Of a DNA stretch of 64,000 nucleotides, positions 3,020 to 54,989 are shown piece after piece; positions within the stretch are counted from its first letter, which is position 1; each line of letters begins with the position of its first letter. A model generated the notes under the pieces. It ran no database searches. It was not told where the DNA came from and saw only the letters and a program-made list of their open reading frames with translations. The translations under genes and the position numbers were made by a program. This DNA is from Mobula birostris (Eukaryota), in the NCBI RefSeq assembly GCF_030028105.1, contig NC_092402.1, positions 41,662,538 through 41,726,537 of the forward strand. The letters run 5' to 3'.

Positions 3020-3212
3020 GACACACAAGACTGCAGATGCTGAATTTGGGAGCGAGAATTGTTCTGCTGGAGGAACTCAGTGGGTGAAGCAGCATCTGTA
3101 GAGCAAAGGGATGGTTGATGTTTCAGGTCAAGACCATTTCAACCTGAAATGTCAACCATCCCTTTGCTCTACAGATGCTGCCTGTACCGCTGGGTTTCTC
3201 CAACAGATTATT
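3020..3212. mobile_element. Penelope pLTR-derived fold-back element (40-bp arms 3089-3128 and 3142-3181)
   Basis: Inverted arms differ at one decayed CpG; same family as 21143-21357. Confidence 0.7.
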
Positions 3213-10388: not shown

Positions 10389-10974
10389 TAAAATTTGCAG
10401 TAAATATAGATCAATGTGTGTGAACACATCAGTAATCATCAATTTAGGTAGTGTCTGAACACTAAAGAAAAAATTAATAAATCTGTGAGAATTGGGTTTT
10501 ACAGTTACATAATCTGGATTTTTTTACTTGCCAAGTTCTCAGATCTTCATCTCTAAAGTTACCTTGAGATGTTGCAGATAGAAAACCTATAAAATAATTA
10601 AGGAGGATACTTGTATTCAAAGCAAACAGTCTTCTAATTTTTAGAACAAAATAATCCTCCTTGATTTTTTTTGTACTGACCAGAAAAGATTTCTGGGCAT
10701 CTGTGCTGCTCATCAAATTATATAATAAGACTGTATACAGATTTTCCAGGCTATAATCCTCTTTTGAGACATTTGGCTCAAGAGCAACTTCCAACGTATA
10801 TAGTGTATAACCAGATTGGCTTTGTATCAAATCCCTCTCCCAAGTTGTCATTTTAGAAACAAACTTTGTGTTGAATTCATGAATCTTAATTAGATTTTTA
10901 AAAATTGTATAAGATCAATGTGAAAATGCTGAAGAGGTTTTACTTCTCTCTCATTAGAAACCATTAGGATAGCA

Positions 10975-12472
10975 ATAAAACATTAGGATAGATAAATCCC
11001 CAGGACCCAACAGAATCGACCCCAGGATACTTTGGAAAACAAGGGAAGAGATTGCTGTGCCTTTGGTGATGACCGTTATGGCCATCTGGCCACAGAAGTA
11101 GTACCAGATGATTGGAAGGTGGCAAATGTTATTCCTTTGTTCAAGAAAGGGATTAGGGATAACCCTGCGAATGATAGACCAGTGAGTCTTAATTCAGTGT
11201 TTGGCAAATTATTGTAGATTCTTAGAGGCAGGATTTATGAGTATTTGGAGAAGCATAGTCAGATTTGGAATAGTCAGCATAGCTTTGTGAAGGGTGAGTC
11301 ATGTCTCACAAGCCTGATTGAATCCTTTGAGAATGTAACAAAGTACATTGGAGCTAGAACAGTGGATTTGGTGTTTATGGATTTTAGTAAGATGTTTGAT
11401 AAGGTTCCCCATGGTAGGCTCATTCAGAAAGTCAGGAGAAACTTTGCTGTGTGGACATAGAATTGGCTTACTGATAGAAGGTTGAGGGTCATTGTAGATG
11501 GAGCATGTTCTGGCTAGAGGTTGGTGACCAGAGGTATTCCACAGGAATTTTGTAAATTACTTGGATGAGGAACTGGAAGAGTGGATTAGAAAGTTTGCAA
11601 TTAACATGAACGTTGGTAGAGTTGTGGACAGTGTAGAAGGTTGTCGTAGGTTAAAGTAGGACATTGATAGTTTGCAGAGCTGGGTTGAAAAGTGGCAGAC
11701 ACTGGCGTTTAACCTGGAGAAGTGTGAAGTGATTCACTTTAGAAGGTCCAATTTGAAGACAATGCAGCGTTAAGATTCTTAGTAGTGTGGAGGAACAAGG
11801 GTATCTTGGTGTACACATCTATAGATCCCTCGAAGTTGATGTGCAAGTTGATAGAGTGGTTTAAGAAGGCACATGGTGTGTTGGCCTTCATTGGTCGGGG
11901 GGGTTGAGTACAAGAGCCACAAGGAGATGTTGCAGCTCTATAAAAGTCTGGTTAGACCACACTTGGAATATTGTTCTGCTGTGGTCGTCTCATTACAGGA
12001 AGGTTGTGGAATCTTTAGAAGGGGTGCAGAGGAGATTTAGCAGGATGCTGCCTGGATTAGAGAACATGTCTTTAGAGACAGGTTGAGCGAGCTAGGGCTT
12101 TTCTCTTTGGAACGAAAGAGGTTGAAAGATGACTTGCAAGAGGTGTACAAGTTGATAAGAGACATAGATCAAGTGGGCAGCCATAGACCTTTTTCCAAGT
12201 CTGAAATGGCATAATTTCAAGGTGATTGGAGCGAAGTATAGAGGGGGATGTCAGAGGTAGGTTCTTTACATGGAGAGTGGTGAGTACGTGGAACATCCTA
12301 CCAGGGTTGATGGTAAAGGCAGATAGATTAGGGGCATCTAAGAAAATTTTAGACAGACACACAGATGATAGAAAAATGGAGGGCTATGTAGGAGGGAAGG
12401 GTTAGATTGATCTTAAAAAAGGTTAAAAGGTCAAAATAACACTGTGGGCCAAAGAACCTGTTCTATGTTCTA
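10975..12472 (+). mobile_element. Decayed CR1 LINE (RT to 3' UTR)
   Basis: Fragmented peptides VPDDWKVANVIPLFKKG, QHSFVKG, DFSKMFDKVPH; tgttctatgttcta tail. Confidence 0.92.
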
Positions 12473-17733: not shown

Positions 17734-19234
17734 GTAAGCTTTTTTCTCCGATTGTTAATTATTTTGAGGACTTGTGTTCAGGAGAGATCCGACTTGTCTT
17801 TAAAAATGCCTATTTTGATCCAAATGAACTAATTTTTATGACTTAGGAATGTATTTGATGGTTTCACTTTAAGTTTGCAATCTGTATTTTTGTTTCAAAT
17901 TCTCTTGGAAATGCGGGAGTTATCCCTATGCAGAATCTGTTTATAAGTGAGTAACATAACTAATGGTAAAATATTAAAATTACAATGTGCCTGTAATATA
18001 AAACAATACCTATAATGGGTTATTGGCTATTTATAAGCACATCACTGTTTCAAGACAAGTTTGACAAATTCATAAATTACATTGTTGCCTTGAGGAAAAA
18101 TCCATTTTTGCTTGGATCTCTGCATCAGATGAATTAGCAATCATGCTTTTTAAAGTGGCCTTTGTGGCTAGCATGATTGTAAGGGTCCCATATTTCTTTG
18201 ATTACTTTGATCATTTCACATGATTCAATAAAGCAATGTAAGCAATGCACTAACATGTGAGCATTTCTCTTGGTAGCCTTGTGCACATAAGCATCTCAAA
18301 AGTATCCAACAATCTTCGAGAGATTAATATACACATACCTGCCCCCCCCCCGCCGTTCATCTGCAGTGTGTAGAAGTACATCATTTAATCTATATTGTCT
18401 TTTTGCTTGTTTTTTTTTTCCAACCAAAATATACTAATTCGCTGTAAATTGCTGTCCATTTTGGTAACCTCGCAGCATACTTTTGTTCTTTAGCTAAGCA
18501 CTCTGTTACAAAGTTTGGTGCCATCTGCAGTGTTGAAACTTTACTCAACACACTTATATCCAAATCATTAATATTGTAAAATGGTGGTGCAGATTTATTT
18601 CAAGTTTGTCAGACACAGTTGGTCAATAGCAAATCCATGCTGGCTGTTATATTAAATCAAATTTCAGTTGTGCCCATTATATTTCCTGTGATTGTCTTGA
18701 AAAGCTTTGAGCTGCTCAGATTAAACTGATCTGTCTGTAGTTGCTAAGGACATTGGGATTCCCATTTTTCCTCTCCTCTTGCACTCCGCAGTATGTAGGA
18801 AGGATTGGAAAATTACAGCAAACCCACTTACAATCTCCATTGCCATTGCAGTCAGCCCATCTGCTACCACTGAGATTAGATAGTTTGACCAACATCTAGC
18901 CCTAAATAAGACAATTTAAGCTAAATATTCTGAAGGACCATGACATTGTCTTTAGTTACAGATGCAACCAACTTGCTGTGATTTCGATTTTCCATCCTCG
19001 TCTCATCTAATTGGCATAGTGTCTGCTTGTATCTGATTATTGTTTGTAAAGTGGCATGGACATTGTCCTAAAATAAGTGTATTCTTGCAAATTCTTGCTT
19101 TAACTTAGGATGTATGAAATGGTTTGTTTACAAAGATGCATTCGGAAAATGCAACAGAAATAATTTTTAGCAGATAAAATTGGCATACTGAAAATTGAAC
19201 TCTTTATAATATTTCATGATTTTCTGTTGTTCAG

Positions 19235-19361
19235 CCCAGACAGCATGCTTGATCCTGATGGTGATTTTGACCTTGATGATACAATGGATGTTGCCAGACA
19301 TGTGGAAGAGCTTCTACGCAGACCAATGGATAATCAGTGGCTTCCTCATCAATCAACATGA
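19235..19361 (+). CDS. stat5: STAT5 last coding exon ([41 protein letters not shown])
   Basis: tcag acceptor, in-frame TGA at 19359-19361, short STAT5B-like C-terminus. Confidence 0.95.
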
Positions 19362-20769
19362 TTGCCACCCCCACCTCACAGAAAATTGTTTCTTATGGTT
19401 TCATTCCATAAGTTGCTTCATTTCCAAATCGTTCATAATGTGAAATGTTAATATTGCTCGTGAATCTAATATTTTTGTGCATGTTGAAGCAGTGCAAATG
19501 TTTCTAAATGTCCCGATTGCTTGGAAGAGGCTGCAGTTTTGGAGACTGCAATTACTATTGTTATTTTATGTTGTACAAAATGCAAGTTGCTATTTGCATG
19601 ATTTTTATTTACCCTTCCAGAATTTTAGTTACGTTTTGGTAAATAGTGTTAATTTGTATTTTAGTGTGCCAAGGCAAATGCTTAACTAAGTCCCAAATTG
19701 GATCATTCACTTAGAAACCAGTCAAAGCTACTTTATTTGTGCATGGATTCTATTTTTCAGTCATTCACCGAGATATTACTTCACATGATTTATTGGAAAT
19801 GATTACTCAGTTTTTGATTGAAGCTTTGAATATTGGCTCATAATTGGCAGAAAAGGGCCACAATAACAGAGATTTTGCTCCTCTTTTGGAATTTACAAAT
19901 TGACTTATCACAATATCAGTGACATATTGAAGAGATAGGTGGGAGGGATAGTTTGTATATTTTTGTATCCCTGAACCATTTGTTCATAATTATATTTGTG
20001 TCTATGGTCACTCTGAATTGAACAAGGGTTTAAAAATAATCATACATTCAACCACTTTCATTGAGGAGTGTTTAAAAAAAGATAGTTATGTATTTGAACT
20101 GTCTCAGGATCAAGGCAATTTCAAACAATTTCATTGGATATCTAGGCTATGTGGTTTGTTTTAAAAAAAAAAGTGCATGAGTTTGGAATGGCATAGCTTT
20201 CAAGATTTACACTGCAAAATTAAGGCATGTATGTGCTCTGTAGGTAACTATTTTATACTGTATCATTTTTGGCAAAATTAAGTACTTGCTAAATTTGATC
20301 ATAAAGCTAGTTACTTTGGAATACTTAAATTTGTTGCAGATATCAGAGAAAAGCTGTACAAGGTGCTGTTTAATCATGTAAGAGCAATGTTATCCTTGCA
20401 GGTCTACTTGAAGAAAGTGTCTTACTTTGGTTGCCTTTATGCCTGTATGGCAGACCTGTCTTCTGTTTGATGTAGTGTTAAGCCAAAATGCCATGCTGAA
20501 TCAATTGTACTCAATATCTTGATCAGTCTCGTGAGTAATAAGAAATATGTGCAAAATGGATTTAGTACATTTTGACCTCTGATAGTTAAGGCTCACAATG
20601 AGTAAAAGCAGCCAGACTTTTCAGATGCCTTAAGCAATAGTGTAAATTAATTGATGCAAAAGCTGCGTAGTATACATAAACTTAAGTATGCATTCCTGAA
20701 TATGACTTGTCACTGTTCCTGATGTTGGTACTATTCGGACGTAAGTTGCTAACTGAAACTTCTTGTTTC

Positions 20770-20775
20770 AATAAA
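20770..20775 (+). promoter_or_regulatory. Candidate STAT5 polyadenylation signal AATAAA
   Basis: First AATAAA I noticed after ~1.4 kb of repeat-free AT-rich UTR-like sequence; usage not provable from sequence. Confidence 0.45.
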
Positions 20776-21142
20776 TGCTTTTTAAAGGGACCACTGGTCT
20801 AATCAATAGGTAAAGGGAATGTTTGAAATCATTCATTTTTTAAGCAACCACTATTACAATTAACAGGGATTGAAATATTTTTTGAAGGGATCCCCATTCT
20901 GATATTTGCCATTATCATTTGTTCAGGAATGCCACGTTCAGCCTAATAGCCACAAGCAAACTGTGGACAACATAAGCAATGAAGATGTTTACATTTTAAG
21001 TACTAGATATGCTTACCCATTTTTAATCAATTATTCTGGCTGCTTCTGTTCAAATGCCTGGGCCTACTGAGATGTAACAAATTTAAATTTAGTTACATAA
21101 TTGGTTATCTTTAATGTAGGGAAAACTAACAAAATACCAGCT

Positions 21143-21357
21143 ACACACATCAAAGTTGCTGGTGAACGCAGCAGGCCAGGCAGCATCTCTAGGAAGAGGT
21201 GCAGTCGACGTTTCAGGCCGAGACCCTTCGTCAGGACTAACCTGAAACGTCGACTGCACCTCTTCCTAGAGATGCTGCCTGGCCTGCTGCGTTCACCAGC
21301 AACTTTGATGTGTGTTGCTTGAATTTCCAACATCTGCAGAATTCCTGTTGTTTGCGT
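21143..21357. mobile_element. Young Penelope pLTR-derived insertion with a perfect 75-bp inverted repeat and 13-14 bp TSD
   Basis: Arms 21143-21217 and 21241-21315 are exact reverse complements; TSD caaaataccagct(a) at 21130 and 21358. Confidence 0.9.
21203..21238 (-). ncRNA. Minimal type I hammerhead ribozyme motif of Penelope-like elements
   Basis: Minus strand reads AGUC-CUGACGA-A-GGGU(CUCG)GCCU-GAAA-CG-UC-GACU: core boxes, stem I AGUC/GACU, stem II, palindromic ACGU in place of stem III. Confidence 0.8.
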
Positions 21358-22250
21358 CAAAATACCAGCTAATTGCTACTGCCAAACTTTAATTCTGAGA
21401 CAATTATGGAGTTGTACATCATATGGTGAAAACATCTCTTCAGGACACTTGCATATATTACTGGCATTTACTAAATATAGTCCATACAGGGAAAAAACAT
21501 TCTATTCCTCTAAATTCTGGTAGGTATGCTCCCACTGTTTTTGGTATATAAAATGCTATACTGTATCTTTCATTCAGCTGTATCTTCCCTAGGAAAGATT
21601 ATTCCTCCCACAACTTCCCGACCAGACTTCATTGGCAACATAATGTTAAATCACTTCCTAACGCATATCAACTGAAGCATGATTTGACTCGCAGTCTTAT
21701 ATTGGCCAGTGCATTTTTTCTACAAGGAAGTCCTATAGAGAAAGATGCATTTCATTCCTTTTACGTGTTAGCAGAAAGCAGTGGAATAGTTTACTTCAGG
21801 ATGTGAATTTAGTTTAGACAAGAATGGGGTGCATTCTCTTTTTAGATTTGCTTTATCTCAGTTCTTGGTCCATGTCATACAATTTAGTAGCACAGATGGC
21901 GCATTCAAGATTGCTGGCTTGAGAACTGATCACCTTTGAAAATGGGATGAAGATGTATTGCTGAGATAATGTAATGATTCTAAAATCTGTTACAATGAAT
22001 TTTATCTGTTACAGTGGCTGTTACTTTTATATACATATATATAGTTTCTGCTGTCTGGCATTCATAATGAAATTTAAAGAAATCTACTGAAACTATCATT
22101 AATATTCAAGTGGTGCTGTTATTGTATGTAAGTTGAGAGATGAATTTTAGTGGAATATGATCTGTCTTTAAGGTGTCTGTAACAGTTACTGGTTTGCTGG
22201 GGGAGGGGGTTTTCTGATGCAGACACTGAAGCCTTATGTTAATTCAGTGT

Positions 22251-23826
22251 TACAGTGGTGTTAGAAAGTTTGTGAACCCTGGAGAGTTTTCTCTATTTCT
22301 CCATAAATACGACCTAAAATGTTATCAGATCTTCATACAAGTCCCAAAACTAGATAAAGGGAACCCAATTAAATAAATAACGGAAAAAAACATTATACTT
22401 GTTCATTTATTTATTGAGGAAAAATGATCAAATATTGCATGTATTTGTTGGAAAAAGTATGTGAACATTTGCTTTCAGTAACTGGTGTGACCTCCTTGCA
22501 CACCAATAACTTAAACCAAATGTTTCCGGTAACATATTGGCTTGGAGGAATTTTAGGCCGTTCCTCGTTACAAAACTGCTTCAACTCTGGGATGTTGGTG
22601 GTCTTCCTTGCATGAATTGCTTGCTTCAGGTCCTTCCACAACAACTCAATTGGATTAAGGTCAGGACTTTGACTCGGCCATACCAAAGCATAAATTTTCT
22701 TCTTTTTAAACCATTCTATTGTTGATTTACTCTTGTGTTTCAGATCATTGTCTTGTTGTATTATCCAACTTCTATTAAGCTTTAGGTGACAGACTGCTAC
22801 CCTGACACTCTCCTGTAAAATGTCTTAATACAATTTTGGATTCATTGTTCCCTCAACAATTGATTGCAAGCTGTCCAGGCCCTGAGACAGCAAAGCAGCC
22901 CCAAACCGTGATGCTCTTTCCACCATGCTTCACAGTTGGAATTGAGGTGTTGGTGTGCAAAGCCCTTTTTCCTACAAACATAGCAATGTGCATTTCTGCT
23001 AAAGAGTTCCAACTTTTGTCTCATCTGTCCACAGAACATTGTCCCTGAATTGTTGTGAAACATCTAAGTGGTCTTTTGCAAACTTGAAACGCACAGCAAT
23101 GTGTTTTTTTTTTTGGAGAGTAGTGGTTTCCTACGTGGTATCCTTCCATGAAGACCAATCTTGTTCAGTGCCTTTCTGATAATGGACACACGAACAGAGA
23201 CTTCAGCAAGTTCTAGAGATTTCTGCAGGACTTTTGCTGTTACCCTTGGATTCTTTTTCGCCTCTTTCAACATTGCACGTTGTGCTCTTTGCAGGATGCC
23301 CACTACTAGAGAGAGTAGCAACAGTACTGAGTTTCCTCCATTTGTAGACAGTTTCTCTTACTGTGGACTGATGAACACTCAGGTCTTTAGAAATACTTTT
23401 GTAGCTTTTTCCAGCTTCATGCATCTCTACAATTCTTCTAAAGTCCTCTGAAAATTGTTTTGATTGAGGCATGGTGCACATAAACAGATCTTTCTTGAAA
23501 AGAGCAGGCTGTGTCAGTAACCTGACTTTGTGCGTCTTATAGGACAGGGCACCTCTACAACCCACACCTCCAATCTCATCTCATTGATTGCAACACCTGA
23601 CTCCAAATAGCTTTTGTAGAAGGTGTTACCCCAGAGGTTCACATACTTTATATATGTAATATTGGATCATTTTTCTCAATGAACAAGTACAATGTTTTTG
23701 TGTTATTTAATTGGGTTTTCTTTATCTAGTTTTAGGACTTGCGTGAAGATCTGATCACATTTTAGGTCATATTTATGCAGAAAGAGAAAATTCTACAGCG
23801 TTGACAAACTTTCTAGCACCTCTGTA
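22251..23826 (-). mobile_element. Tc1 transposon with long (~210 bp) terminal inverted repeats, decayed transposase
   Basis: TA-cagtggtgttagaaagtttgtgaacc / ttgacaaactttctagcacctctg-TA ends; WPSQSPDLNPIELLW and HTH peptides on the minus strand. Confidence 0.95.
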
Positions 23827-24699
23827 TCTTCAAGGCAGGGCATCGTTCAGTATAACAGAGCCATACAAGCTAGCACTGGTTTTCTTGAGAGCTTCAGGAA
23901 CCCAGCATACACTATTGGAGCATTTCCACTTTTGGTTGAAGAAAGTATTTTTCTCAGAATCATTTGGAATCCTCTGTTTCTATTGTAAAGGTCCAGAACC
24001 TCTGTGATATAGCTCAGTTCTTTATTCCCTACCCTCAATTCAATCCTAGCCTTGGGTTTATTTAGTGAAGGAAGTTGTGGCCTAGAAAGAAGTCATTTAG
24101 TATATGTGAAAGTTTTCGGCAGAGTGGTTAGTAGTGTATAATAAGTCATAGTAGTCCTCTTGCCTGGAAATTTGGTGCCAACAGAGACCTCCAACAGCAT
24201 CCTGAATATCAGCTAAACTGAAACTAATATTCAGTGAATGTGAAGGTGCTTTGTAAGCAAACTGCATAAAATATCACACCCTGTATTTTGCTGATAAATC
24301 CTAAATGCAGACTCTTCAGCAAAATTTTTCAGTGGGTGCATTGTAGAATTCACTGTGGAAAGACAGTGCTAGAGTTGGATTTTGCTGAGATTCACTGAAT
24401 CAAATCTAGTGCCACGATAGACTTGGTACAGGTCCCCAGTCCATTGATTTCAATGGGGGTTGTAGGGCTACAGTGAAAAATATGCAAGTTCCTATTTAGA
24501 TTATTTTTGGTTGTTTGATGTTTGTATCTTTAATGGTGCTTGTTTTTAGTTGAATTTACTTTTTTAATTTTTTTCAATTTTACATGTTTAAAGTGTAACA
24601 AAAGTTAAAGCCAGCAACATTTTAGAAACCCTAATGACTTTGGCTTGCAAAGCGAAGGAGTTGGGAGGGTTAGGGCTTCACCAGCTCTCAGAAGCTATG

Positions 24700-25175
24700 T
24701 CTCCATCTCTGTAAACAAACTGTCAATCAACATCTTTTGTGCACCTATCAAATCCCAGTTACCTTGACTATACCTCTTCCCACCCTGTCTCCTGCAAAAA
24801 TGCTATTCCGTTTTCTCAGTTCCTTCATCTCTGCTGCATCTGTTCCCAGGATGCGACTTTCAAGGCTTCCTTCAAAGAATGGGGTTTCCCTTCCTCCACC
24901 ATTAATGCTGCCATCACTATTTCCCGAACACCTGCACTCGCTCCATCTTTCCGCCACCTTAATAGTGATAGAATTCCTCTTGTGGGACCTACCATCCCAT
25001 GAGCCTTGTATCCAACACATCATCCTTTGCAACTTCTGCCATCTCCAAAGGGATCCTACCATCAAACATATCTTTATCTCTCTCTTCTCCTCTCCCCCAA
25101 CTTTCCACAGAGATTACTCCCTCGTGATTCCCTTGTCCATTCGTCTCTCCCCAATTAATTTCCCTCCTGGAACGG
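24700..25175 (+). mobile_element. Penelope-like element RT C-terminal fragment
   Basis: YLDYTSSHPVSCKNAIPFSQFLHLCCICS peptide. Confidence 0.85.
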
Positions 25176-28100
25176 TCTAGGTTAATATGAGAACCAAACA
25201 TTGCAACTTAAATTGGGCAGAATGCAGAAAAACACTGTTACATGCCCTTCACTATCACAAGTAGAAGCAATCTTTATCATGAGTCCACACATCAGGAAGG
25301 GTTCCCTTCTGGAGGACTGTTCAAATCTGGATATTTTGTAAATCGGGAATGAACAAAAACTGTATGGAAGAGAATCACAGAAGCAGCTGTGATGGAAGAG
25401 CAGCCAGCCTCACTGACTCATTGAGCAAGTGAATACTCAATTCTCTCAAGTCTGTGTGATTTGGCCCAGCCACTCCTAATCTTGTGGCTCAGTGTGGGGG
25501 TGGGGGGAGGGGGAATGTTGAGAGAAGACACAGGGAAATGCTCTGTTCCCACCTGGGAAAAGATGTCTGCAGTCGCACAGCAGCTAGGAAATCCAGTCTC
25601 ATCCATCCTGCATGTCTCCCAAACACCCGAGAAAATATCTGCTCAACCCTGATAAAGATCACCTGCAACCTATACTGGCTGGCAAATCTATCTCCATACA
25701 GACCTTGGAACAGCTGGCACAACAGCTCAATCCACTAATTACTGATGATAATATTGCCTCTGCCTCAGCAGCATCCAGCTATGTGGTTGGCCTCCAACTG
25801 CACTGACTAACTCCAAATCATTTGTGATTTGCTTCACACTTGTGTAGTTCTGCTATAGAGTTGGGGTACTTGTTTAAAAATTGTTCAAAAAATTTCGGAA
25901 ACTCAAATTAGCAAGCTTGTTTGTATGCAGAGGTGTCCTTAAATTTGTTTGCAACCCGGACCGGGCCTATATATTTAAATAAAAGCGTTTATTATATAGT
26001 GGTTAAGCATGTGAAGAAAACCGAAATAGACAGAAATCAAGAACAACCTTGAAAGAATCATTATTTTTTTTTCAAATTATAGAGTCAATAAATACTCAAA
26101 TGCTTCATCATTTCATTAAAATTTGATTGTCAGAAGTTTGAAGAATTTTTTTCTTGGTACAGGATTAAAAATAAAAATAGCTGTTACCCATGCCTTTTAA
26201 TCTGTACATATGGTTGGAAATACGAGCTACTTGGGTATCATCTTGGTGTTAAGGCCAAAATATATTTTTCACAGAATCAGCAACAATTGTGACAGAGATG
26301 CTGTGACCCACAAGATATCTGGCAAGGTTGAGCCTTGCAATGCTGACTTAGTCTTGCTTTTCTCTCCTAAACCATAACCAATAAGATGGCAAAACCTCAA
26401 TCAGTATTCAGTTAGAAACCTGTATGCCATTGACTGAGAACAGAATTGGGTTTAGCTGTGAGTTTACACAATTAGTTTTAAGCTCATCATAAAGTTCAAG
26501 TAGATGATAGAATTTTTTTTTCTAGTGATGCTTCATCTGTCAAATTAAATTGACCTTGTAGACCAGCCACCAGAGTAAAGAACCAAATTCTAGCAGGACG
26601 GTTACTCATCAGGAGGCTAAAAATAATACTTGTAACTGTTTAGTTGCTCAGGTTTTACTCAGTATTGACCTAATGTTTGCGGCAAGCACCTATTGAAAAT
26701 TAGATTGTGAAGTTCAATTCACGTAAAACTATATTCAGTTTTTCTTTTTCCACCCCTCCAGAGTGTGATGCCATTGGTCAGAAAAAATAATTAGAGAAGC
26801 ATAAAAATAAGGTTGTGTCTCCACCATGACACAGTGACGTGGACTGATGAATGCATTCCTGTGTGAATTTTAAAAAGACAATTATATTTAGCCTAGCACT
26901 TTTATAAGTAATTTAGTACATGAAGGATTCTTGTAAAACGAAGAGTGGACAACTACACCTTCAGTGTACTTTCAACCTGTTCTACTTCTCACCTAGAGTG
27001 ATGTAATTGTATTTTGTCCCTCTAAAAATGATGAAAGAGGGGGAAGAACAATTTGCAGTCTCGACCTAATTTTACTAATACTAGTTAAAGCAATATTTTA
27101 ATAGAGTACCTAAGTTATGCTGTACATGTTCATTGTGCTTATGCTATGCACACCATAAAAGATTACAGATTAACAGTGACAATTTTATGGTTTGTTATCA
27201 CTAAATCCATAAAACAGCACACTTTTCATGAATTTAGTTACAAAAGTATTGTAATAACATAAACGTTTACAATCTAAAAGTTCATTTAAATTGGATAGAA
27301 TGTATGTCTGTTAATAAGCTTTCCAGTAAATTGATTTATTTTTTAACTAGCTCTGTTGTCTCAGTGCTTTCCTCATTTTTGCATCTGGTTAACTGGGTTT
27401 CAGTTAAAGCGAACTGTTTTTAAAAAAACTTGTCTACATTGTTTTTTTTATGCAGGAGCAGTTTTTGGTTTTGTGGAGTAAGGTCAGCATTTTTTTTTTT
27501 TGCAGTTATATACCTGGATTGTGGACAAATAACCAATTTCTAACCATCCTCTCTCCACACCTTTGCAATCAATATTTGCAGCATACTAAGCTGAAGATGG
27601 TCATCAGGCTGGTAGCATGTGTGGGCAGAGAGGAAAAGAAAGTGAAAGATAAGCAGGTTTTATAAAATGCAAAGAGCAGGAGAAAACAAGGTGGAAAGGT
27701 GGTGAGATTAAATGACAAATGTGCAAGGAACAGAGTTGAGGTCTATAATTGGCAGGAGCCCTTAAATGAAGACAAAATTAGAACTATTGTTAGTTGAGAG
27801 AAGAATGTTAGGCAGAAGGTCAAGTTATCCTGCTGTTAAAATACTGCTTTAGGATCTTTTTCTCTCAAGCAGATAGAAGAAGCCCCAGTGTAAATATCAA
27901 GTGAAAGTAGTTTTGGGATTAGAACATTTCTGTGCTGCATTGGAGCGTTAGTGGAGGTAAACACATTCAAGCTCTGGGTCAGAGATTGAACCTTCAGGTT
28001 TAAATAAGAATTAGTCACAGAGTAATACAATATGGAAATGAGTCCTTCAGCCAACTCATCCATGGTGACCAGTGCCCACCAAGCTAGTCCCATTTGCACC

Positions 28101-29729
28101 TGTTTAGCTCATATCCCTCAATTCCTCCTATCCATGTACTTACCCAAATGTATTTCAAATGTTACTGTACCTATTACAGTACAATAATTTTGAATCTATT
28201 GAAATAATTCAAAGCTGTGTAATTTTGTCTAAGTTTTAATAATTGCATTTTTGCATTAAAACATTTTACCTTCCAAAATGTTCAGTCACGCCATATAAAA
28301 GTTGTTCAAACTTGTGGTCATCTGTCACAATTGCCTGGTTCTAAATCTATCTTTGCTGCTATTAACTTTAATTAATAAAATGTGATTCTAAAAGTACAGA
28401 GAATGAAATTATGTCCCCAGAATTTTTTTGTCATCAATCACATCTCAAAATTGTTTCATGCTGTTGGATAAGTGGGTATTTCATTTAAATGAACATTTAA
28501 AGCCATACAATTTGGATTAGTTTTCCATTTTGTTGAGAACCCAGACTTCCCAATCACCAATTATAGACATACATTTTTGTACAGTATTCATAGTGGTGCA
28601 AAAGAAATTGTTTCAGACTATTTGAAAGCATGATGGGGTACCATAAACAGTACACAAGACATCACTCAATTCACTTTGTTGAACCAAGGAAATATATGTT
28701 GCTTAATTAAGGGTAAACAGTGAATTATATGGGTAGTCTTTAAAAAAAATGCATGCAGAGAGTTGATTTTTGAACACCAACATGTATTTAGTGCATCTAG
28801 AATCTGGCATTTACATGAAGTGATGGATTCATGACTTACTGCAACTGAAAGGCTCACCATTTTTCTAAACATGACATTCTGCATATTCCATTATAGGGAT
28901 GCTGCCTGATCTGCTGAGTTCCTCCACCATTTATTCTAAAGCAAGATTTTGTATTTGGCAGTACAAATGGAGCTCTTCATTCTGTGTAAAGCTGGGTGCA
29001 AACATATATTTGTGTGCCAACTTATTGCCAAGTAGTGGTAACATATTACTTTCAAGGTTTCTTGGGTCTACTACTGTATAAGGACAAGAATATAGGAGCA
29101 GAAGTAGACCATCTGGCCCTTCATGTGTGTCATGCCATTCAGTATCATCATAGCCCTCAATTCACTAAGAATTTTTCTATTTCCACTAATAGTGAACCAG
29201 CATCGATAACCCTATAGGTTTACTACCATCTGCATGAAATTCTTATGCAGCTCTATCCTCTAAGTCCTCTCATTTAAAACTTTCCCAATAATAAAAATAT
29301 TTCACCATGTCCCTTGTCAAGTCCAAGGATTTTGTGTGTTTCAATAAGATCACCCTTCATTTTTCTAAACTCTAAAGAATAAAGAAACAACATTCTCATG
29401 CCAGGAATTAGTCTAACAAATCTCTCCAAAGCTGGTACCCGGGATTATGTAAGTGTTCCATTTCTGAGAACTGTCCATAATCCAATTTATCTGTGAGCCA
29501 AAAGCAGACAATTTCTCAGTAAGGGAAAAGCAAGTGGGTGACAGAAATAACAAAAGTTCACTCATTTGCAGCCAATTGATGATATAGTCATAAAGTCAGA
29601 GCGCCAGCAGAGACAATGAGATTGCATCAATCATTTCTTGTAAATCAAGCCATAGTTCAAACACTTGCATGCACATACAAGCATTTCCAACATGAATCCT
29701 CTGGTGTTATTTTAAACTTTGAAAACTAT

Positions 29730-36684: not shown

Positions 36685-37720
36685 AAACACAAAAGATTCT
36701 GCAGATACTGCCAATCCAGAACTACACACACACACACACACACACACAATGCAGAAGGAACTCAACAGGTTCGACAGCATCTATGGAAATAAATAAACAG
36801 TCGATATTTTGGGCTGAGAACCTTCATCAGGACTGGAAATGAAGGGGTAAGAAGGTGGAGAGAGGGAAGGAGTATAAGCTGGAAGATAATAGGTGAAGCC
36901 AGGTGGATGGGGGAGGGGGAGATGAAGTGAAAAGCTGGGAGAGGATAGGTGGAAAAGGCAAAGGGCTGGAGAAGAAGGAATCTTTATAGAAGAGGAGAAT
37001 GGATCATGGGAGAAAGGGAAGGAGGAGGCATACCAGGGGATGTGATAGGCAGGTGAGGAAAAGAGTAGAGGTAAGAAGGTGCCAGAGGGGAGAATTCAAG
37101 AAGAAAAAGGGGGGGGGAGGGAAGAGAAATTACCAGAAGGAGAAATCACTGTTCATGCCATCAGGTTGGAGCTACCCAGACTGAATATGAGGTGTTTCTT
37201 CTCCAACCTGAGAGTGGCCTCATCATGGCAGTAGAGGAGGCCATGGACCAACATGTCGGAATGGGATTGGAGATTAGAATTAAAGTGGTTGGCCACCAGG
37301 AAATCCTGCTTTTTGTAGATGGAGTGAAGATGCTCAACAAAGCAGTTCCCCCAGTCTATATTAGGTCTCACCAATGTAGAAGAGACTGCATCGGGAGCCG
37401 GATATAGTAGGTGACCCCAACAGATTTGCAGGTGAAGTGTTGCCTTACCTGGGAGGACTGTTTGGGGACAGGAATGGTAGTGAGGGAGGAAGTGAATGGG
37501 CAGGTGTACCACTTTTTCCACTTGCAGGGATAAGTGCCAGGAGGGAGATCGGGGGAAGGGACGAATGGGAGAAGGGAACCATAGAGGGAGTGACCCCTGC
37601 GGAAAACAGAGAGTGGGGAGAGGGAGGTAAAGATGTGCTTGATGGTAGGGTCCCGCTGGAAGATGAAATATTGCCTGGTGGTGGTTGAGTCGAGGAGAAC
37701 GTATGTCTGCAGCGGCTGAA
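36685..37720 (-). mobile_element. Penelope-like element 3' part: GIY-YIG endonuclease remnant plus pLTR with degenerate hammerhead at ~36799-36834; (CA)n at 36724-36747
   Basis: FVEHLHS...VANHFNS...H...RLEKKHLIFSLG peptide; minus-strand agtcctgatgaaggttctcagcccaaaatatcgact. Confidence 0.85.
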
Positions 37721-39840: not shown

Positions 39841-40413
39841 GTCAGAGGATGCTGCACCGTACCGAACTGGGAAGTGGCGCTGAAGAAGCCTTGGCTTGTG
39901 CTGTAGACTATTTCATAGGTGTACATCAGCCACTATGTGGCTGAGGGAGTCGGTGAATTGGCTGCCTTGACCTGGATGGGTGTTGAGTTGCTCGGGTGGA
40001 GGGGAGTTGAAGTGATCTAATTAGGTGGGGAATCAAATCCTCAACACAAGATTCTGAAGATGCTGGAAATCCAGAGTTAATATGCATGAAATGCTGGATG
40101 AAGAGTCTCTGCCCAAAATGTTGACTCTATTCCTCTCCATAAGTGCTGCCTGACCTGCTGAGTTCCTCCAGCATTTTGTGTTTGTTACTCAGGTAGGAGG
40201 AGAGCCACCTTTGGCATTCCAGACCAGTGTGAAGTTTACAGTTGGAATGTCATCTTTAAACAATTCCTTAAAGTCAGGTTTGTTCCTATTATTAAAATGA
40301 TAGATACTTCTTATAGAAATAACCATAGTGATTTCTCCAGTATATTGAAACTCTTTGCTATCACTGCCTTATATTAACACTGTCTAAAACTATTGATTTT
40401 CTCCATGTTACAG

Positions 40414-41026: not shown

Positions 41027-43992
41027 GTAACGAGGATTCGCTTGGCTTAGCGTAATACCCTAACTACTTAACAAATTTCTGTGTTTCGTCACATTCCAAG
41101 GTCAGATAAATGAGGCAAGCAGCTCTCAGGCTCGCCGAGATATACTTCCAATCATGAGCTTGAATTTATTTTGTGCCTTTAACATAGAAAAAATTATCCC
41201 AAGGCAGAACGGCATTGTAGGGAGAAAGCTGCCAAGCCAAAAGCTTGGTTGATGGTTTTGGAGACGGATCCAGAGTATTAAACTTGGCCCAGACTGGCTT
41301 ACTCCTTTCCTTTCCCATGTACAGTGTTACGGGAGATCTCGACAGAAATGTGCAAATGGTTATAAACACATTTTGCAGATGCTGGAAATCCAGAGTAACA
41401 CACACAAGAGGCTGGAGGAACTCAGCAGGCCAGGATTAAGGTCTAGACAGTGGACAGCCAGAACCTTTTTTTTCCCACCAGCGTGGCAGTGGCTAATACC
41501 AGAGGGCATCCTTTTAAAGTGAGTGGAACAAAGTTTAGGGGGGAGATGCCAGAGGTAGGTTTCTTTCTTACGCAGAATCAGATTTAATATCACTGACATA
41601 CATCGCCTTGTTCCTTGCAACAGCAGTACAGTGGGTGCGGGGTTGGTGGCAGAGGCTGATACATCAGGGATGTTTAAGAGACTCCGAGATAGTCACATAG
41701 ATGTAAGAAAAATGGAAGATTAAGGTGTCGATTGATTGTGGTGTCGGTTAAAAGGTTGGCACAACATTGTGGGCTGAAGGGCCTGTACTGTACTGCACTG
41801 TTCTAAAATCAGTTTGTGATCCTGAGACATGATCAACATAATCATTCACACAAAATGCTGGAGGAACTCAGCAGGTCAGGCACAATCAGTGGAGAGGAAT
41901 ACAGAGTCAATGTTTCGGGCTGAGATCTTTTATGTGCCTCTGGAGCCTGCTTGACCATTTAACAACATAAGGCTGATCCAAATCAACTGTTCTAACATTT
42001 GACACTCTTAATGACTAACACTCTACTCGTTTCGTTTGTGAGTAAACTCGGTGTCATGTCTCCACAGCTTTCCGGGATAGGGAATTCCAAAAATTCACAA
42101 TGCTGAGCAGAAGTATTTGTTCTGAATAGCAGACCTATCCCAAGCTATGATGTCCATTTCTAGGCTTTCTTGTTGCAGGAAATGTAGGTGTAAGACATCA
42201 GCTATTAACTTATACTTTGGAACATCATTGTAGGTTCATTCATTTTGGGGGAAAAAATCATCCTATCCATCAATATCATTTGAAGCTGAGTATTTTCAAA
42301 TGCTATTTTCATCAATGAAATACAATTGCATGTACTCCTCTATCCATATTCTGCAACACCATGGAAACACTACCATCAAATAATTACTCCACTGTAATAC
42401 TGAAACGACTGACTTCAGATTTTCCTTCTTAAAATCTAGGTGAATTTGATTATATTATGATCACTTGCCCCAAGGGTTCATTTACCTTCATGTGGTACGG
42501 AATCAAAACTGATACATGGACAGGGCATCCCCGTACGCCCTCACCTACCTGGGCCACATGCCTCTCATTCTGTTGCACACTTCTCTCAAGTCGCCTCTTA
42601 TTCTCCTTTGCTCCAAAGGGAAAATCCCTAACTTGTTTCAATCTATAAGATAGATATAAGATAGGATAAGACATATTCTCTTATCCGGGGCCATCCTGGT
42701 AAACCTCTTCTGCAACTTCTCTAAAGCTTCCTCAACCTTCCTATAATAGTACAGTACAGGAACAGGCCCTTCGGCCCACAACATTGTGCTGGACCAAATA
42801 AATTGGTAATCAAATGGTCATCTAAACTAATCCTTACTGCCAGCACAATCCATCTCCCTCACATTCATGTGCCTATCTAAATGTCTCTTAAAAGTCCCTA
42901 ATGTATCTGCCTCTACCACCCACCTCAACAAGTGCATTGCAGGCACCCGTCACTCTCTGTGTTTTGCATGCTATCCATACAGGTCATTTCATCACATCAG
43001 TACATTGCAGTAACACATGGAGAAAACAATAAAAGAATGCAGAATAAAGTGTTACAGTTGCAAAGAAAGTGGAGTGCAGGCAGACAATAATGTGCAAGTT
43101 CATGACTAGGTAGATGTGAAGTCAAGAGTCTACCTTATTGTACAAGAGGTCTGTTCAATAGTCTTGCACAGTGGGATAGAAACTGTCGTTGAGCCTTGTG
43201 GCACATGCTTTCAGGCTCTTATATAACCTACCTGATGGGAGTGGGGAGAAGAGAAAATTTTGGGGATAGGAGGGTATTTGAATATGGCGGTTGCTTTACA
43301 GAGGTAGGGAGAAGTGTAGACAGAGGCCATAAGATGAGATAAAACTTTATTTATCCCAAAGGAAATTATTGTTGCAAGGTTGTTCAGTCAGAAATAAAGA
43401 CAAAATGTAAGCATTGAGGTATAAAAATACAAAATGTGCTTTAAAAACACAGATGTGCAATGAAACCATATACTTGTATACTTGAGGAGGAGGAGTTGTT
43501 GTAGGGTTTTATAGCTACAAGGAGAAAGGATCTCCTGTGGTGTTCAGAGGTGCCATGAGGAGGAAGCTGGTGCTTCATGTGAAAACCTTGTAATTTAGCC
43601 TGCCCTTTGTGAGAAGGTATTTGGAACACGTAAACTACTGACTCAATAAAGCTGAGTAAGAGCAGTTACCTCCCCAGTGAAATTGACCATCTGGTGTCCA
43701 CCTTCCAATGTGAACATGGTGGATTCTAGAATTTCTGCAACGTTAGCATAACGTCATGGGTTTAGCTCACCAATTTCCAAACAGCTTCTTCCTGTGTGCC
43801 ATCAGGTTGCTGAACAGAACACCAACCCACGGGCACTCTCATTATCGCTTTTTTTTTGCACTGCTTATTTGTTTTGTAACTTAAAGTCATACTTTGCAGT
43901 GTACTGCATAATAATAAACTTCATGCCATATTGGTTAGTGATCATAAATCTGATTCTGGAAAGGATTGAATTGATCCTGATGATTCTACAAA

Positions 43993-52545: not shown

Positions 52546-54989
52546 GTGAGTGTTATTTGATAAGTGATAAATCTGAAGGGATTTTCCCTGTACATTGTAG
52601 AGAACGTGCCTCGTTCGATTTTATAACGTGTGTTGTATTACCTTTGCTTCAAAACTGAAAGACAAGCTTGCAGCTGGTGATTGGAGCACCACAATGCTGA
52701 AGCAATAACCATTGTATACCTCTGCTGTCCAGAATCAAAGGAAAGGGCTTTTGGCGGAATCCAACAGAGAGAGCAAGATGACCATTACAGAACAAGGAAT
52801 CCTCCAGCAGCTCGTCGCTCCAGATTCCAGCATCTGCAATTGCTTGTCTCCTCCAAATTTCCTCTTACTTTAGAACATAAAACAGCTTTTAGCACAGGAC
52901 TTTCAGCCCACAATGTTGTGCCAAACTAATTAAGCCGATGATTGTTCTAATCCCTTCTGCCTGCACATGGTCCATATCCCTCCATTCTCTGCATATTCAT
53001 GTATTATCAAAGAGCTTATTAAATATCTCTGTCATATCTGCCTCCATCACCTCCCCTAGACACCCACCACTGACCTTTTTAAAAAAAAGACTTGACCCAC
53101 ACATCTCCTTTCCACTTATCAAAAGCATTTCTGCAGATCCTGGAAATCCAGAGTTAACACGCACCAAATGCTGGAGCAACTCAGCAGGTCAGTCAGCATC
53201 CATGGAGAGGAATAAATAGTCAGCGTTTCAGGCCGAGACCCTTCATCCTGACCTGCTGAGTTCTTCAAGCATTTGTTGTGTTACACTATTATTTGACCCT
53301 GGAAGAAAGATACCAGCTGTCCACTCTGTCTGTCATCTACCTTTGTAATTGATAAGGGATAACTAAAATACTGTTGTTCCAAACTCCACATTGTTTTCAT
53401 AAATCATGGTTTGCATTTATGTAGCTCCTTTCTTCAAATTCTTTTATAACACTTGTACAAACGTTGTAAATTCAAGAAGTTGAATTAAAGATCCTGCAAA
53501 CACTGAAGTGCTAAGGATCAGACTTTCTGTTTTATTAATATCACAGGTGGGGCGAGCAATTGTTCTCCAAAATACCAGAGATAATGCTCCTGCCCTTTTT
53601 AGAAACAGTGGCCTTTACTGGAGAAGCAGAGAGCTTCAGTGTAGTATTTTAACCTAAGGTAGCACCTCCATCAGTTCAACAATCTCTCAGTGCTACACTG
53701 GTGTGTCAGCTATTGTTTTTATGCTCAAGCTGCTGGAGTAGAATGTACCACCAAATTTTAACTCAAAATCAGAATGTTACTAAATTTATCACAGAAATAT
53801 ATAATTTACACTGGTTTTACCCTCTCTTTCTATCATTTGAAGGCAAAAGTATTTTGTAGACATGTAGAATTATTCAAATCACACTGCTGCTTATAGATGC
53901 ACCAGAGCGAAGCTGAGAGGATCAAACATCTAACCCTAACTTGATGAATCAGGTCAGACTGAGCACGTTGCAAGGTGAACATCAGTGTTATGTGCTTTCA
54001 CTAGGGTTGCAGACAGTGTTTTTTACTGTATGTGTTAATGCACCATTTACAAATGGATGCAGTCAAATCAGGATGCATCGCACTCAAACTTAAATGAGCT
54101 GTTCAAGTAGATAGGCTCGAGTTGGTTTGCTGGGGAAGACGATGGACGTTTCCCTGAATGTCAGAGTGCAGAGCTGAGCTCATACACGTAACTGACTCCT
54201 CCTCTGAATGGGATCCTGTTTCTGCATTTATTAGCTACTGCCTATCAATCTCTTTCAGAGTTCTATGTGTTTCAATGAGTTCTCTTTTCACAGAGTTCCA
54301 CTGTTTACTCTGTACTTACTCATTTATGCCTTTGCTGTCTATGCATCATTTGTTCCTCTAAGACCAACACAAGTGCCTATGTCCAGAACTGACTGAATGG
54401 TGAGGAATTCCGCATCCTTTGTAGATACCTCATCCAAAGCACAGGACAGGTGAGGAGTGCCCGAAGGCTTGTTTTTCAAAAAAAAGTGCTGGACACCGAT
54501 GGCAGTGTATGATGTGTGTGGAATTGATGAGAAACTTGTCCTGCTTTTGTCGGCAAGAAGTATAATGCAATACATACATAGCACAGGCATAGATGATATT
54601 CAATCCAGTCAGAAATACTGATGCATGGACTTTGCCTGGCACTTGAGGAAGGACTCAGTCTTGGAAGGCTTCCTAGCAAAACAGCTTCCACAGAAACAAA
54701 CTTTCAGAGCTTCCAAACAATTGATCCACAGGGAATACTCCACTGTCTCTAAGAACCATTTTAATGTTTGTAATGACTGGTGTAGCCAATCCTCCCAGGA
54801 GCAATGCTTCACACAGAGATCAAAAACTAACAAACTTAATACCCAGATCCACCCAAGTTCCCTCTTTCCACATTTTGTTACAGTACTAAGGAAGCATTAT
54901 TGTTCCTCTCTGTGTCTTGTGGTACATCAGGTGGCAACCTTGCACTTAACCGTTTTTTTACCATGCTGAGTTGCTAGCTCAACACTTAA

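Follow-up and report, generated by a model that had tools for sequence, protein, structure and literature searches.

Insertions of Penelope-like elements (PLEs) in which an inverted copy carries a tail on one side only are a described pattern (PMC3846280, PMC8557442), and the one-sided tail itself is documented in PMC8557442, PMC3846280 and PMC11167929. By the account given in PMC11167929, a PLE protein predicted to act as a dimer cuts and extends both DNA strands in vitro, uses uncut RNA and initiates at two sites, one at each boundary of the tail; in that system, PAc Poseidon, hammerhead cutting was not needed for insertion. For inverted pLTRs, fold-back self-priming has been proposed in PMC3846280. 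A CX2-5CxxC linker is used in PMC8557442 to define Neptune/Nematis elements. As presented in PMC4209133, the minimal hammerheads of PLEs showed no activity as monomers, carry a G10.1-C11.1 pair that is termed 'highly conserved' rather than invariant, and are found as pairs 100-700 bp apart on opposite strands. The same source describes an intron in the Drosophila virilis Penelope element that ends at hammerhead helix I.

Here we describe a related structure in Mobula birostris, found in a 64,000-nt stretch of DNA that was analysed as a whole and that we call the window. The initial annotation had reported an insertion of about 215 bp with a 13-14 bp TSD and two 75-bp arms free of mismatches, and this description holds. 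The insert is 214 bp long and is flanked by a 14-bp TSD, CAAAATACCAGCTA, present as 100 % identical direct repeats at 21130-21143 and 21358-21371 (plus strand); the last A of the left copy can alternatively be read as the first base of the element. The inverted arms at 21143-21217 and 21241-21315 measure 75 bp each, with 0 mismatches and 3 CpG per arm, and enclose a loop of 23 nt.

The anatomy is asymmetric. The tail-less arm (21143-21241, minus strand) is a copy of the 3' end of the element from an inner start site to the front edge of the hammerhead and corresponds to a putative first cDNA. The parent reads CTTCAG before TTAGTCC, and it is at this G that the tail-less arm ends. The loop (21218-21240) is the portion of the hammerhead found in one arm only. 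The arms are joined at 21241, where a C matches both parents and so provides a 1-nt microhomology; the same joint is present in 3 further loci. The second arm (21241-21315, plus strand), a putative second cDNA, starts within helix II and holds the 3' half-core only, GAAACGTCGACT at 21244-21255 (plus strand), as had been noted earlier for the strand opposite the full motif. It continues into a 42-nt one-sided extension (21316-21357, plus strand), absent from the earlier description, which is the diagnostic PLE tail located between the two start sites and which has an A at 21330 in place of the common G. The perfect match of the arms marks this copy as young and not as exceptional. Recent homogenisation, which had been offered as an explanation of that match, is not needed, as a single RNA was likely the template of both arms, and an absence of arm mismatches is also seen in 14 of 79 sister pairs.

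We read the locus as a doubly 5'-truncated head-to-head PLE insertion, likely the product of one event of paired starts and predicted to be a dead end with an inactive ribozyme; we place the probability of this reading at about 0.87. The enzyme of the element would nick both DNA strands 14 bp apart, and two short cDNAs would be started on one RNA, one per strand. The first cDNA would begin at the inner start site and stop at the hammerhead front edge after ~99 nt, while the second would begin 42 nt further 3', which gives the tail, and stop inside helix II after 117 nt. Joining of the two at the 1-nt microhomology and subsequent gap filling would yield the TSD. We infer the cDNA starts and their joining from features that are seen directly, namely the anatomy, the parent, an empty site, a one-tail rule, the match between the arms of a pair and arm lengths that vary independently.

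The parent element is found in very high copy number. A 22-mer of the hammerhead has 46,320 exact matches in the 4.0-Gb genome (control 0), and 27 of the first 30 matches run on upstream into one common sequence, consisting of a 330-nt pyrimidine-rich UTR and, beyond it, a GIY-YIG endonuclease and RT. Locus L215 is a near-full RT plus GIY-YIG copy with ORF pieces of 793 and 172 aa and one frameshift; its motifs are YIDD, GVIY-CxxC-LYIG, two His, CCHH and a CX4CxxC linker. The linker reads CKRNKCYTC in L215-L217, which fits CX2-5CxxC between RT and endonuclease. The RT piece of L215 matches the Pfam family RVT_1 at E 4e-5, under the curated cut-off, and a Pfam search of the endonuclease piece gave no family match, so that the endonuclease label rests on motifs. 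We therefore assign the parent to the EN+ PLEs of Neptune/Nematis type, a clade placement made from sequence motifs by the definitions set out in PMC8557442 rather than from a tree.

The earlier proposal of an ORF-less Penelope derivative is supported on both counts: the insert is the 3' end of an RT plus GIY-YIG element, and neither the ORF nor its 3' UTR is left in arms of ~100-120 nt. In 86 copies taken in genome order, which come from the first 100 matches after omission of 9 partner arms of pairs already included, 1 other and the last 4, the element is 5'-truncated from +1 to ~+1,800 nt past the 22-mer, with a median of ~375.

The insertion had been placed just downstream of STAT5. It does lie past the stop codon (1.78 kb after 19361) but apparently inside the transcribed 3' UTR, not downstream of it. 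The last exon of STAT5 (19235-22262, plus strand) is coding up to the stop at 19361 and then continues as 3' UTR to at least 22262; the exon upstream of it matches STAT5A/B (E 4e-19). The position in the 3' UTR follows from RNA-like contigs of two runs of the same species (X5 and X7) that cover 19235-21164, into the left arm, and 21327, in the tail, up to 22262-22304, and that leave the intron bin 19100-19230 uncovered; no single piece spans the repeat itself. The RNA label of these runs is the guess of a tool, none being recorded as RNA, and a further run, X6, was later flagged 'probably DNA'. The contigs end where another repeat begins (~22270). This repeat (~22270-23600) contains minus-strand reading frames, which we take to resemble a Tc1/mariner transposase; depth jumps at its edge, and it may hide the end of the STAT5 3' UTR.

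In a related species, 21129 is followed directly by 21358 in one DNA-like and one RNA-like contig, and the TSD is present once, which represents the empty site. That species differs from the window at 23 letters in ~2,950 (~0.8 %). The youth of the insertion, suspected in the initial annotation, is borne out by this empty site, and the element would have entered the STAT5 3' UTR after the split from the close relative.

With the insert in the 3' UTR, long transcripts of STAT5 would contain a double-stranded stem of 75 bp. It is conceivable that this hairpin has a function in the STAT5 3' UTR and was selected for a role in editing, nuclear retention or decay of the long message. In the contigs, thousands of other copies pile up on the arms and mask any editing of the stem. 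Its location in the transcribed UTR and the predicted plus-strand fold of -167.7 kcal/mol are consistent with such a role, as are the RNA-like contigs of two samples that run unbroken through the TSD into the arms, so that no empty allele is apparent. However, the two samples may be one animal, the insert is absent from the related species and an AATAAA at 20770 could terminate some messages ahead of it. Moreover, with thousands of similar hairpins in the genome, a UTR insertion is expected by chance. We consider a selected function improbable and the stem in the STAT5 message most likely nearly neutral. The full and the empty site, both expressed in two close species, form a ready pair for testing the effect of a new stem on an immune-signalling message.

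Support for paired starts comes from other head-to-head copies. The loci examined contain 152 such pairs, 121 of which were not selected by likeness to this copy; 80 of the 121 come from loci selected by joint patterns, and nearly all lie on contigs C1 and C3. Exactly one tail is present in 116 of the 121 (p 2e-28 compared to the 50 % expected from independent choice). The five exceptions are two pairs with two tails (L193 and L266), one tail-less pair (L123), one misread pair and one clipped by the locus edge. Subfamily letters are shared between the arms of a pair in 85 of 93 (expected 47.7), 96 of 101 (expected 74.8) and 93 of 99 cases (expected 70.8). Arm lengths in the 116 pairs vary independently, the tail-less arm being longer in 52 and the tailed arm in 49, with 15 equal. 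With one mismatch allowed, the TSD is 13-17 bp long in 25 of the 29 sisters scored. The one-tail rule, the shared letters and the independent stops would fit a single RNA on which reverse transcription started twice, with microhomology joining of the two products. The step that places both starts on the same RNA depends on the shared letters, which could also be given by later gene conversion between the arms. We found no paper in the open literature on the pairing rule, that is one start site per strand; supplements could contain such counts.

Alternatively, one cDNA may have turned back to copy itself into the second arm by fold-back self-priming. Such an event would result in identical arms with shared letters, and short fold-back fillers are found at some joints. 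In its plain form it cannot make this copy, because loop and tail sit on different arms: the loop is in the tail-less arm only and the tail in the other only, so neither arm contains all the letters of the other. The same layout, with loop and tail apart, is found in 52 of the 116 pairs and would require an added template switch. We judge fold-back to be somewhat less probable again than a selected UTR function, and paired starts on one RNA remain the preferred reading.

The minus-strand hammerhead quoted in the initial annotation is present exactly as given, at 21238-21203. It is a complete minimal hammerhead (21203-21238, minus strand) with helix I AGUC/GACU, CUGACGA, an extra A, helix II, GAAA and a palindromic ACGU, and the predicted cut lies between 21207 and 21206. 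A strict scan for minimal hammerheads returned this site as the sole match in the window, while 100 mononucleotide shuffles gave 0.0 matches on average. In Rfam at E<=10 no hammerhead model matched, and only generic hairpin (miRNA) models were returned, below their cut-offs. The core elements CUGANGA, GAAA and NUH, helix I, the extra base 9/10.1 and the palindromic 15.2-16.2 are all present, and the consensus pair G10.1-C11.1 is replaced by a G.U closing helix II (A-U in another register). The motif is the commonest form in the loci examined, with 110 of 335 motif sites, many of these loci having been picked for carrying this very hammerhead motif. Position 11.1 in the family motifs is U (T) in 228 and C in 60 of the 288 counted; an expanding subfamily may have weakened helix II.

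Cutting by the ribozyme of this copy is predicted to be unlikely, because the motif lies antisense to the STAT5 message and, on its own strand, is predicted to be trapped in the stem. The sense strand in the STAT5 message contains only the 3' half-core. In the minus-strand RNA, forcing the hammerhead fold (helices I and II) would cost 34 kcal/mol compared to the 75-bp stem, and antisense transcription would produce the complementary arm first. The term self-cleaving RNA, applied earlier, is thus unlikely to describe this copy.

A mobilised non-autonomous family had also been suggested, and it is conceivable that a retrozyme- or MITE-like hairpin moves as a unit and cuts its own RNA by the hammerhead. 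Sister junctions do exist, this exact joint being found at 4 places on 4 contigs; they are too few and too mixed for a family, however, since short hairpins whose exact 16-mer arms are separated by a gap of 40-70 nt number at least 3,025 in the genome. Among the loci with the same joint, L004 differs from this copy in the subfamily letter of both arms, while L030 differs in its subfamily letter and in the arm that bears the tail, and because of these differences in letters or tail side the four look like separate events. In L003 the joint, layout and subfamily letters are the same as in this copy, which fits either origin, as it could be a sister by descent or a separate event. Further joints recur (L337/L338, L345/L347 and L111/L113/L115), but these sit on short shared letters. 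Non-autonomous PLE derivatives have been described, according to 10.64898/2026.07.22.740005. The insert has no tandem units, leaving its hammerhead without a dimer partner in cis, and the ribozyme is predicted to be trapped by the stem. A hairpin family moving as a unit is therefore largely refuted and is the least probable of the three alternatives. Instead, the mixed backgrounds of the four copies of the joint, and the 13 distinct joints found in 15 short hairpins examined, suggest that such hairpins arise repeatedly by independent events rather than by spread of one unit.

To estimate where cDNAs stop, match counts were multiplied by the fraction of true stops, determined from 30 loci each. 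cDNAs often stop within the hammerhead or shortly ahead of it, at ~1 % per base, and stops peak, about twofold, at the G that ends the left arm of this copy (~1,180, or 2.5 % of all matches to the 22-mer). The estimates are ~490-590 one base before the peak and 520-680 one base after; three bases after it, the raw count is 633 matches. Of the 86 genome-order copies, 7 have their stop within 6 nt and 18 have it within 45 nt, which represents a gradual fall. The modest peak and this gradual fall give no sharp edge, and they would allow an RNA start at the hammerhead front edge but do not show it. We rejected the reading of the 'CC' at the joint as a cap copied into cDNA or as a very short first exon. 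The base after the 22-mer is C in 530 matches (13 of 30 true stops) and A or G in 1,355 (21 of 30 true stops), and without an excess of C there is no cap signature; continuation into the donor-exon letters was found at 0 of 376 sites examined. After the cut site, C or T follows in 1,021 matches, with 10 of 30 true stops, 4 from the shared AGTC, the C/T classes alone being counted. Taken as a genomic proxy of self-cleavage, the cut site has no clear pile-up of stops relative to a control that is incomplete. As a separate observation, both arms of one copy (L128/L129) end at the same G, generating a perfect palindrome at the hammerhead front edge.

The parent may also contain an intron. Positions 316-660 of L215 (contig C1 near 2,524,200) form a possible 345-nt GT-AG intron whose 5' end lies at the end of the endonuclease region and whose terminal AG falls within hammerhead helix I. 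Ahead of the hammerhead core the parent has a branch-like TACT(A/C)AC, a pyrimidine tract and CAGTTAG, and CTGG/GTAGCC lies 345 nt upstream. The joint 316-662 of L215 occurs in three RNA-like runs from both species at depths of 21, 84 and 37, and shifted by one base it skips CT..AC, equal to a GT-AG intron on the sense strand. For this joint the letters between are marked as not known, and 14 of the 15 listed joints are also at 0 in the DNA run, which is an incomplete count; one run, X6, was flagged as probably DNA, and the contig may derive from a related family. An exact-pattern search of the genome found no copy of the spliced form. The candidate intron parallels the D. virilis Penelope intron, as far as PMC4209133 describes it, in ending at helix I, and if true it would extend the link between intron end and hammerhead to a vertebrate Neptune-type element.

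Other repeats are found in the window. Older related PLE ends, 70-85 % alike, lie at 36758-36860, 53158-53247, 41370-41434, 40051-40189, 41856-41925 and 28894-28921, the first of which has a pyrimidine tract and AG immediately ahead of the hammerhead core. A decayed hairpin of the same build at 3065-3196 belongs to an older related family and has its turn inside helix II. A related PLE ORF fragment from the linker region, like L215, lies at ~24590-25180 (plus strand), and a STAT5 intron contains, at ~10950-12400, what are presumably CR1-like LINE RT fragments, labelled from motifs.

This copy is in itself ordinary, a young stub of a very common element. The class of stubs represents a natural record of a poorly understood insertion, in which the one-tail rule, the shared letters and the stops can be tested against the PLE in vitro. 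We are doubtful of a broader claim, namely that the stubs preserve, as fossils, the paired priming carried out by a PLE dimer and that, in addition, the 345-nt intron rewrites the ribozyme, with only unspliced RNA being copied, and the stem alters STAT5 output.

Compared to the EN+ PLE insertions described in PMC8557442 and, for Adineta Pen2a, in PMC3846280, the locus is alike in its head-to-head arms, its tail at one end, its TSD and its variable 5' truncation, and the parent is alike in combining RT with a C-terminal GIY-YIG and the CX2-5CxxC linker of Neptune/Nematis (PMC8557442). While the tail in those insertions is given as 30-40 bp, here both arms are ~100-120 nt and the tail is 42 nt; the TSD is 14 bp compared to the 8-10 bp reported for Adineta in PMC3846280. 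With the minimal hammerheads of PMC4209133 the motif shares the type I core (CUGANGA, GAAA and NUH), the extra nucleotide between 9 and 10.1, a short helix I, the palindromic 15.2-16.2 and the lack of helix III. It differs from those hammerheads, as they are depicted there, in having G.U (or A-U) for G10.1-C11.1 with a helix II of 3-4 bp, and in the arrangement of one full and one half motif within a 75-bp stem. The in vitro reactions of PAc Poseidon (PMC11167929) are similar in that two RT starts bound the tail and both strands are extended. However, PAc Poseidon belongs to another clade and its start site shows no strand difference in that account, which, as far as it extends, contains no report of one site being paired with the other in each insertion, as seen here in the genome at 116 of 121 pairs. 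Finally, the non-LTR retrozymes described in 10.64898/2026.07.22.740005 are also non-coding and pLTR-derived, carry a type I hammerhead and are occasionally found in 3' UTRs; by that description they consist of units repeated directly in tandem and contain two or more full motifs, whereas the arms of the present insert form one inverted pair in which only one motif is full.
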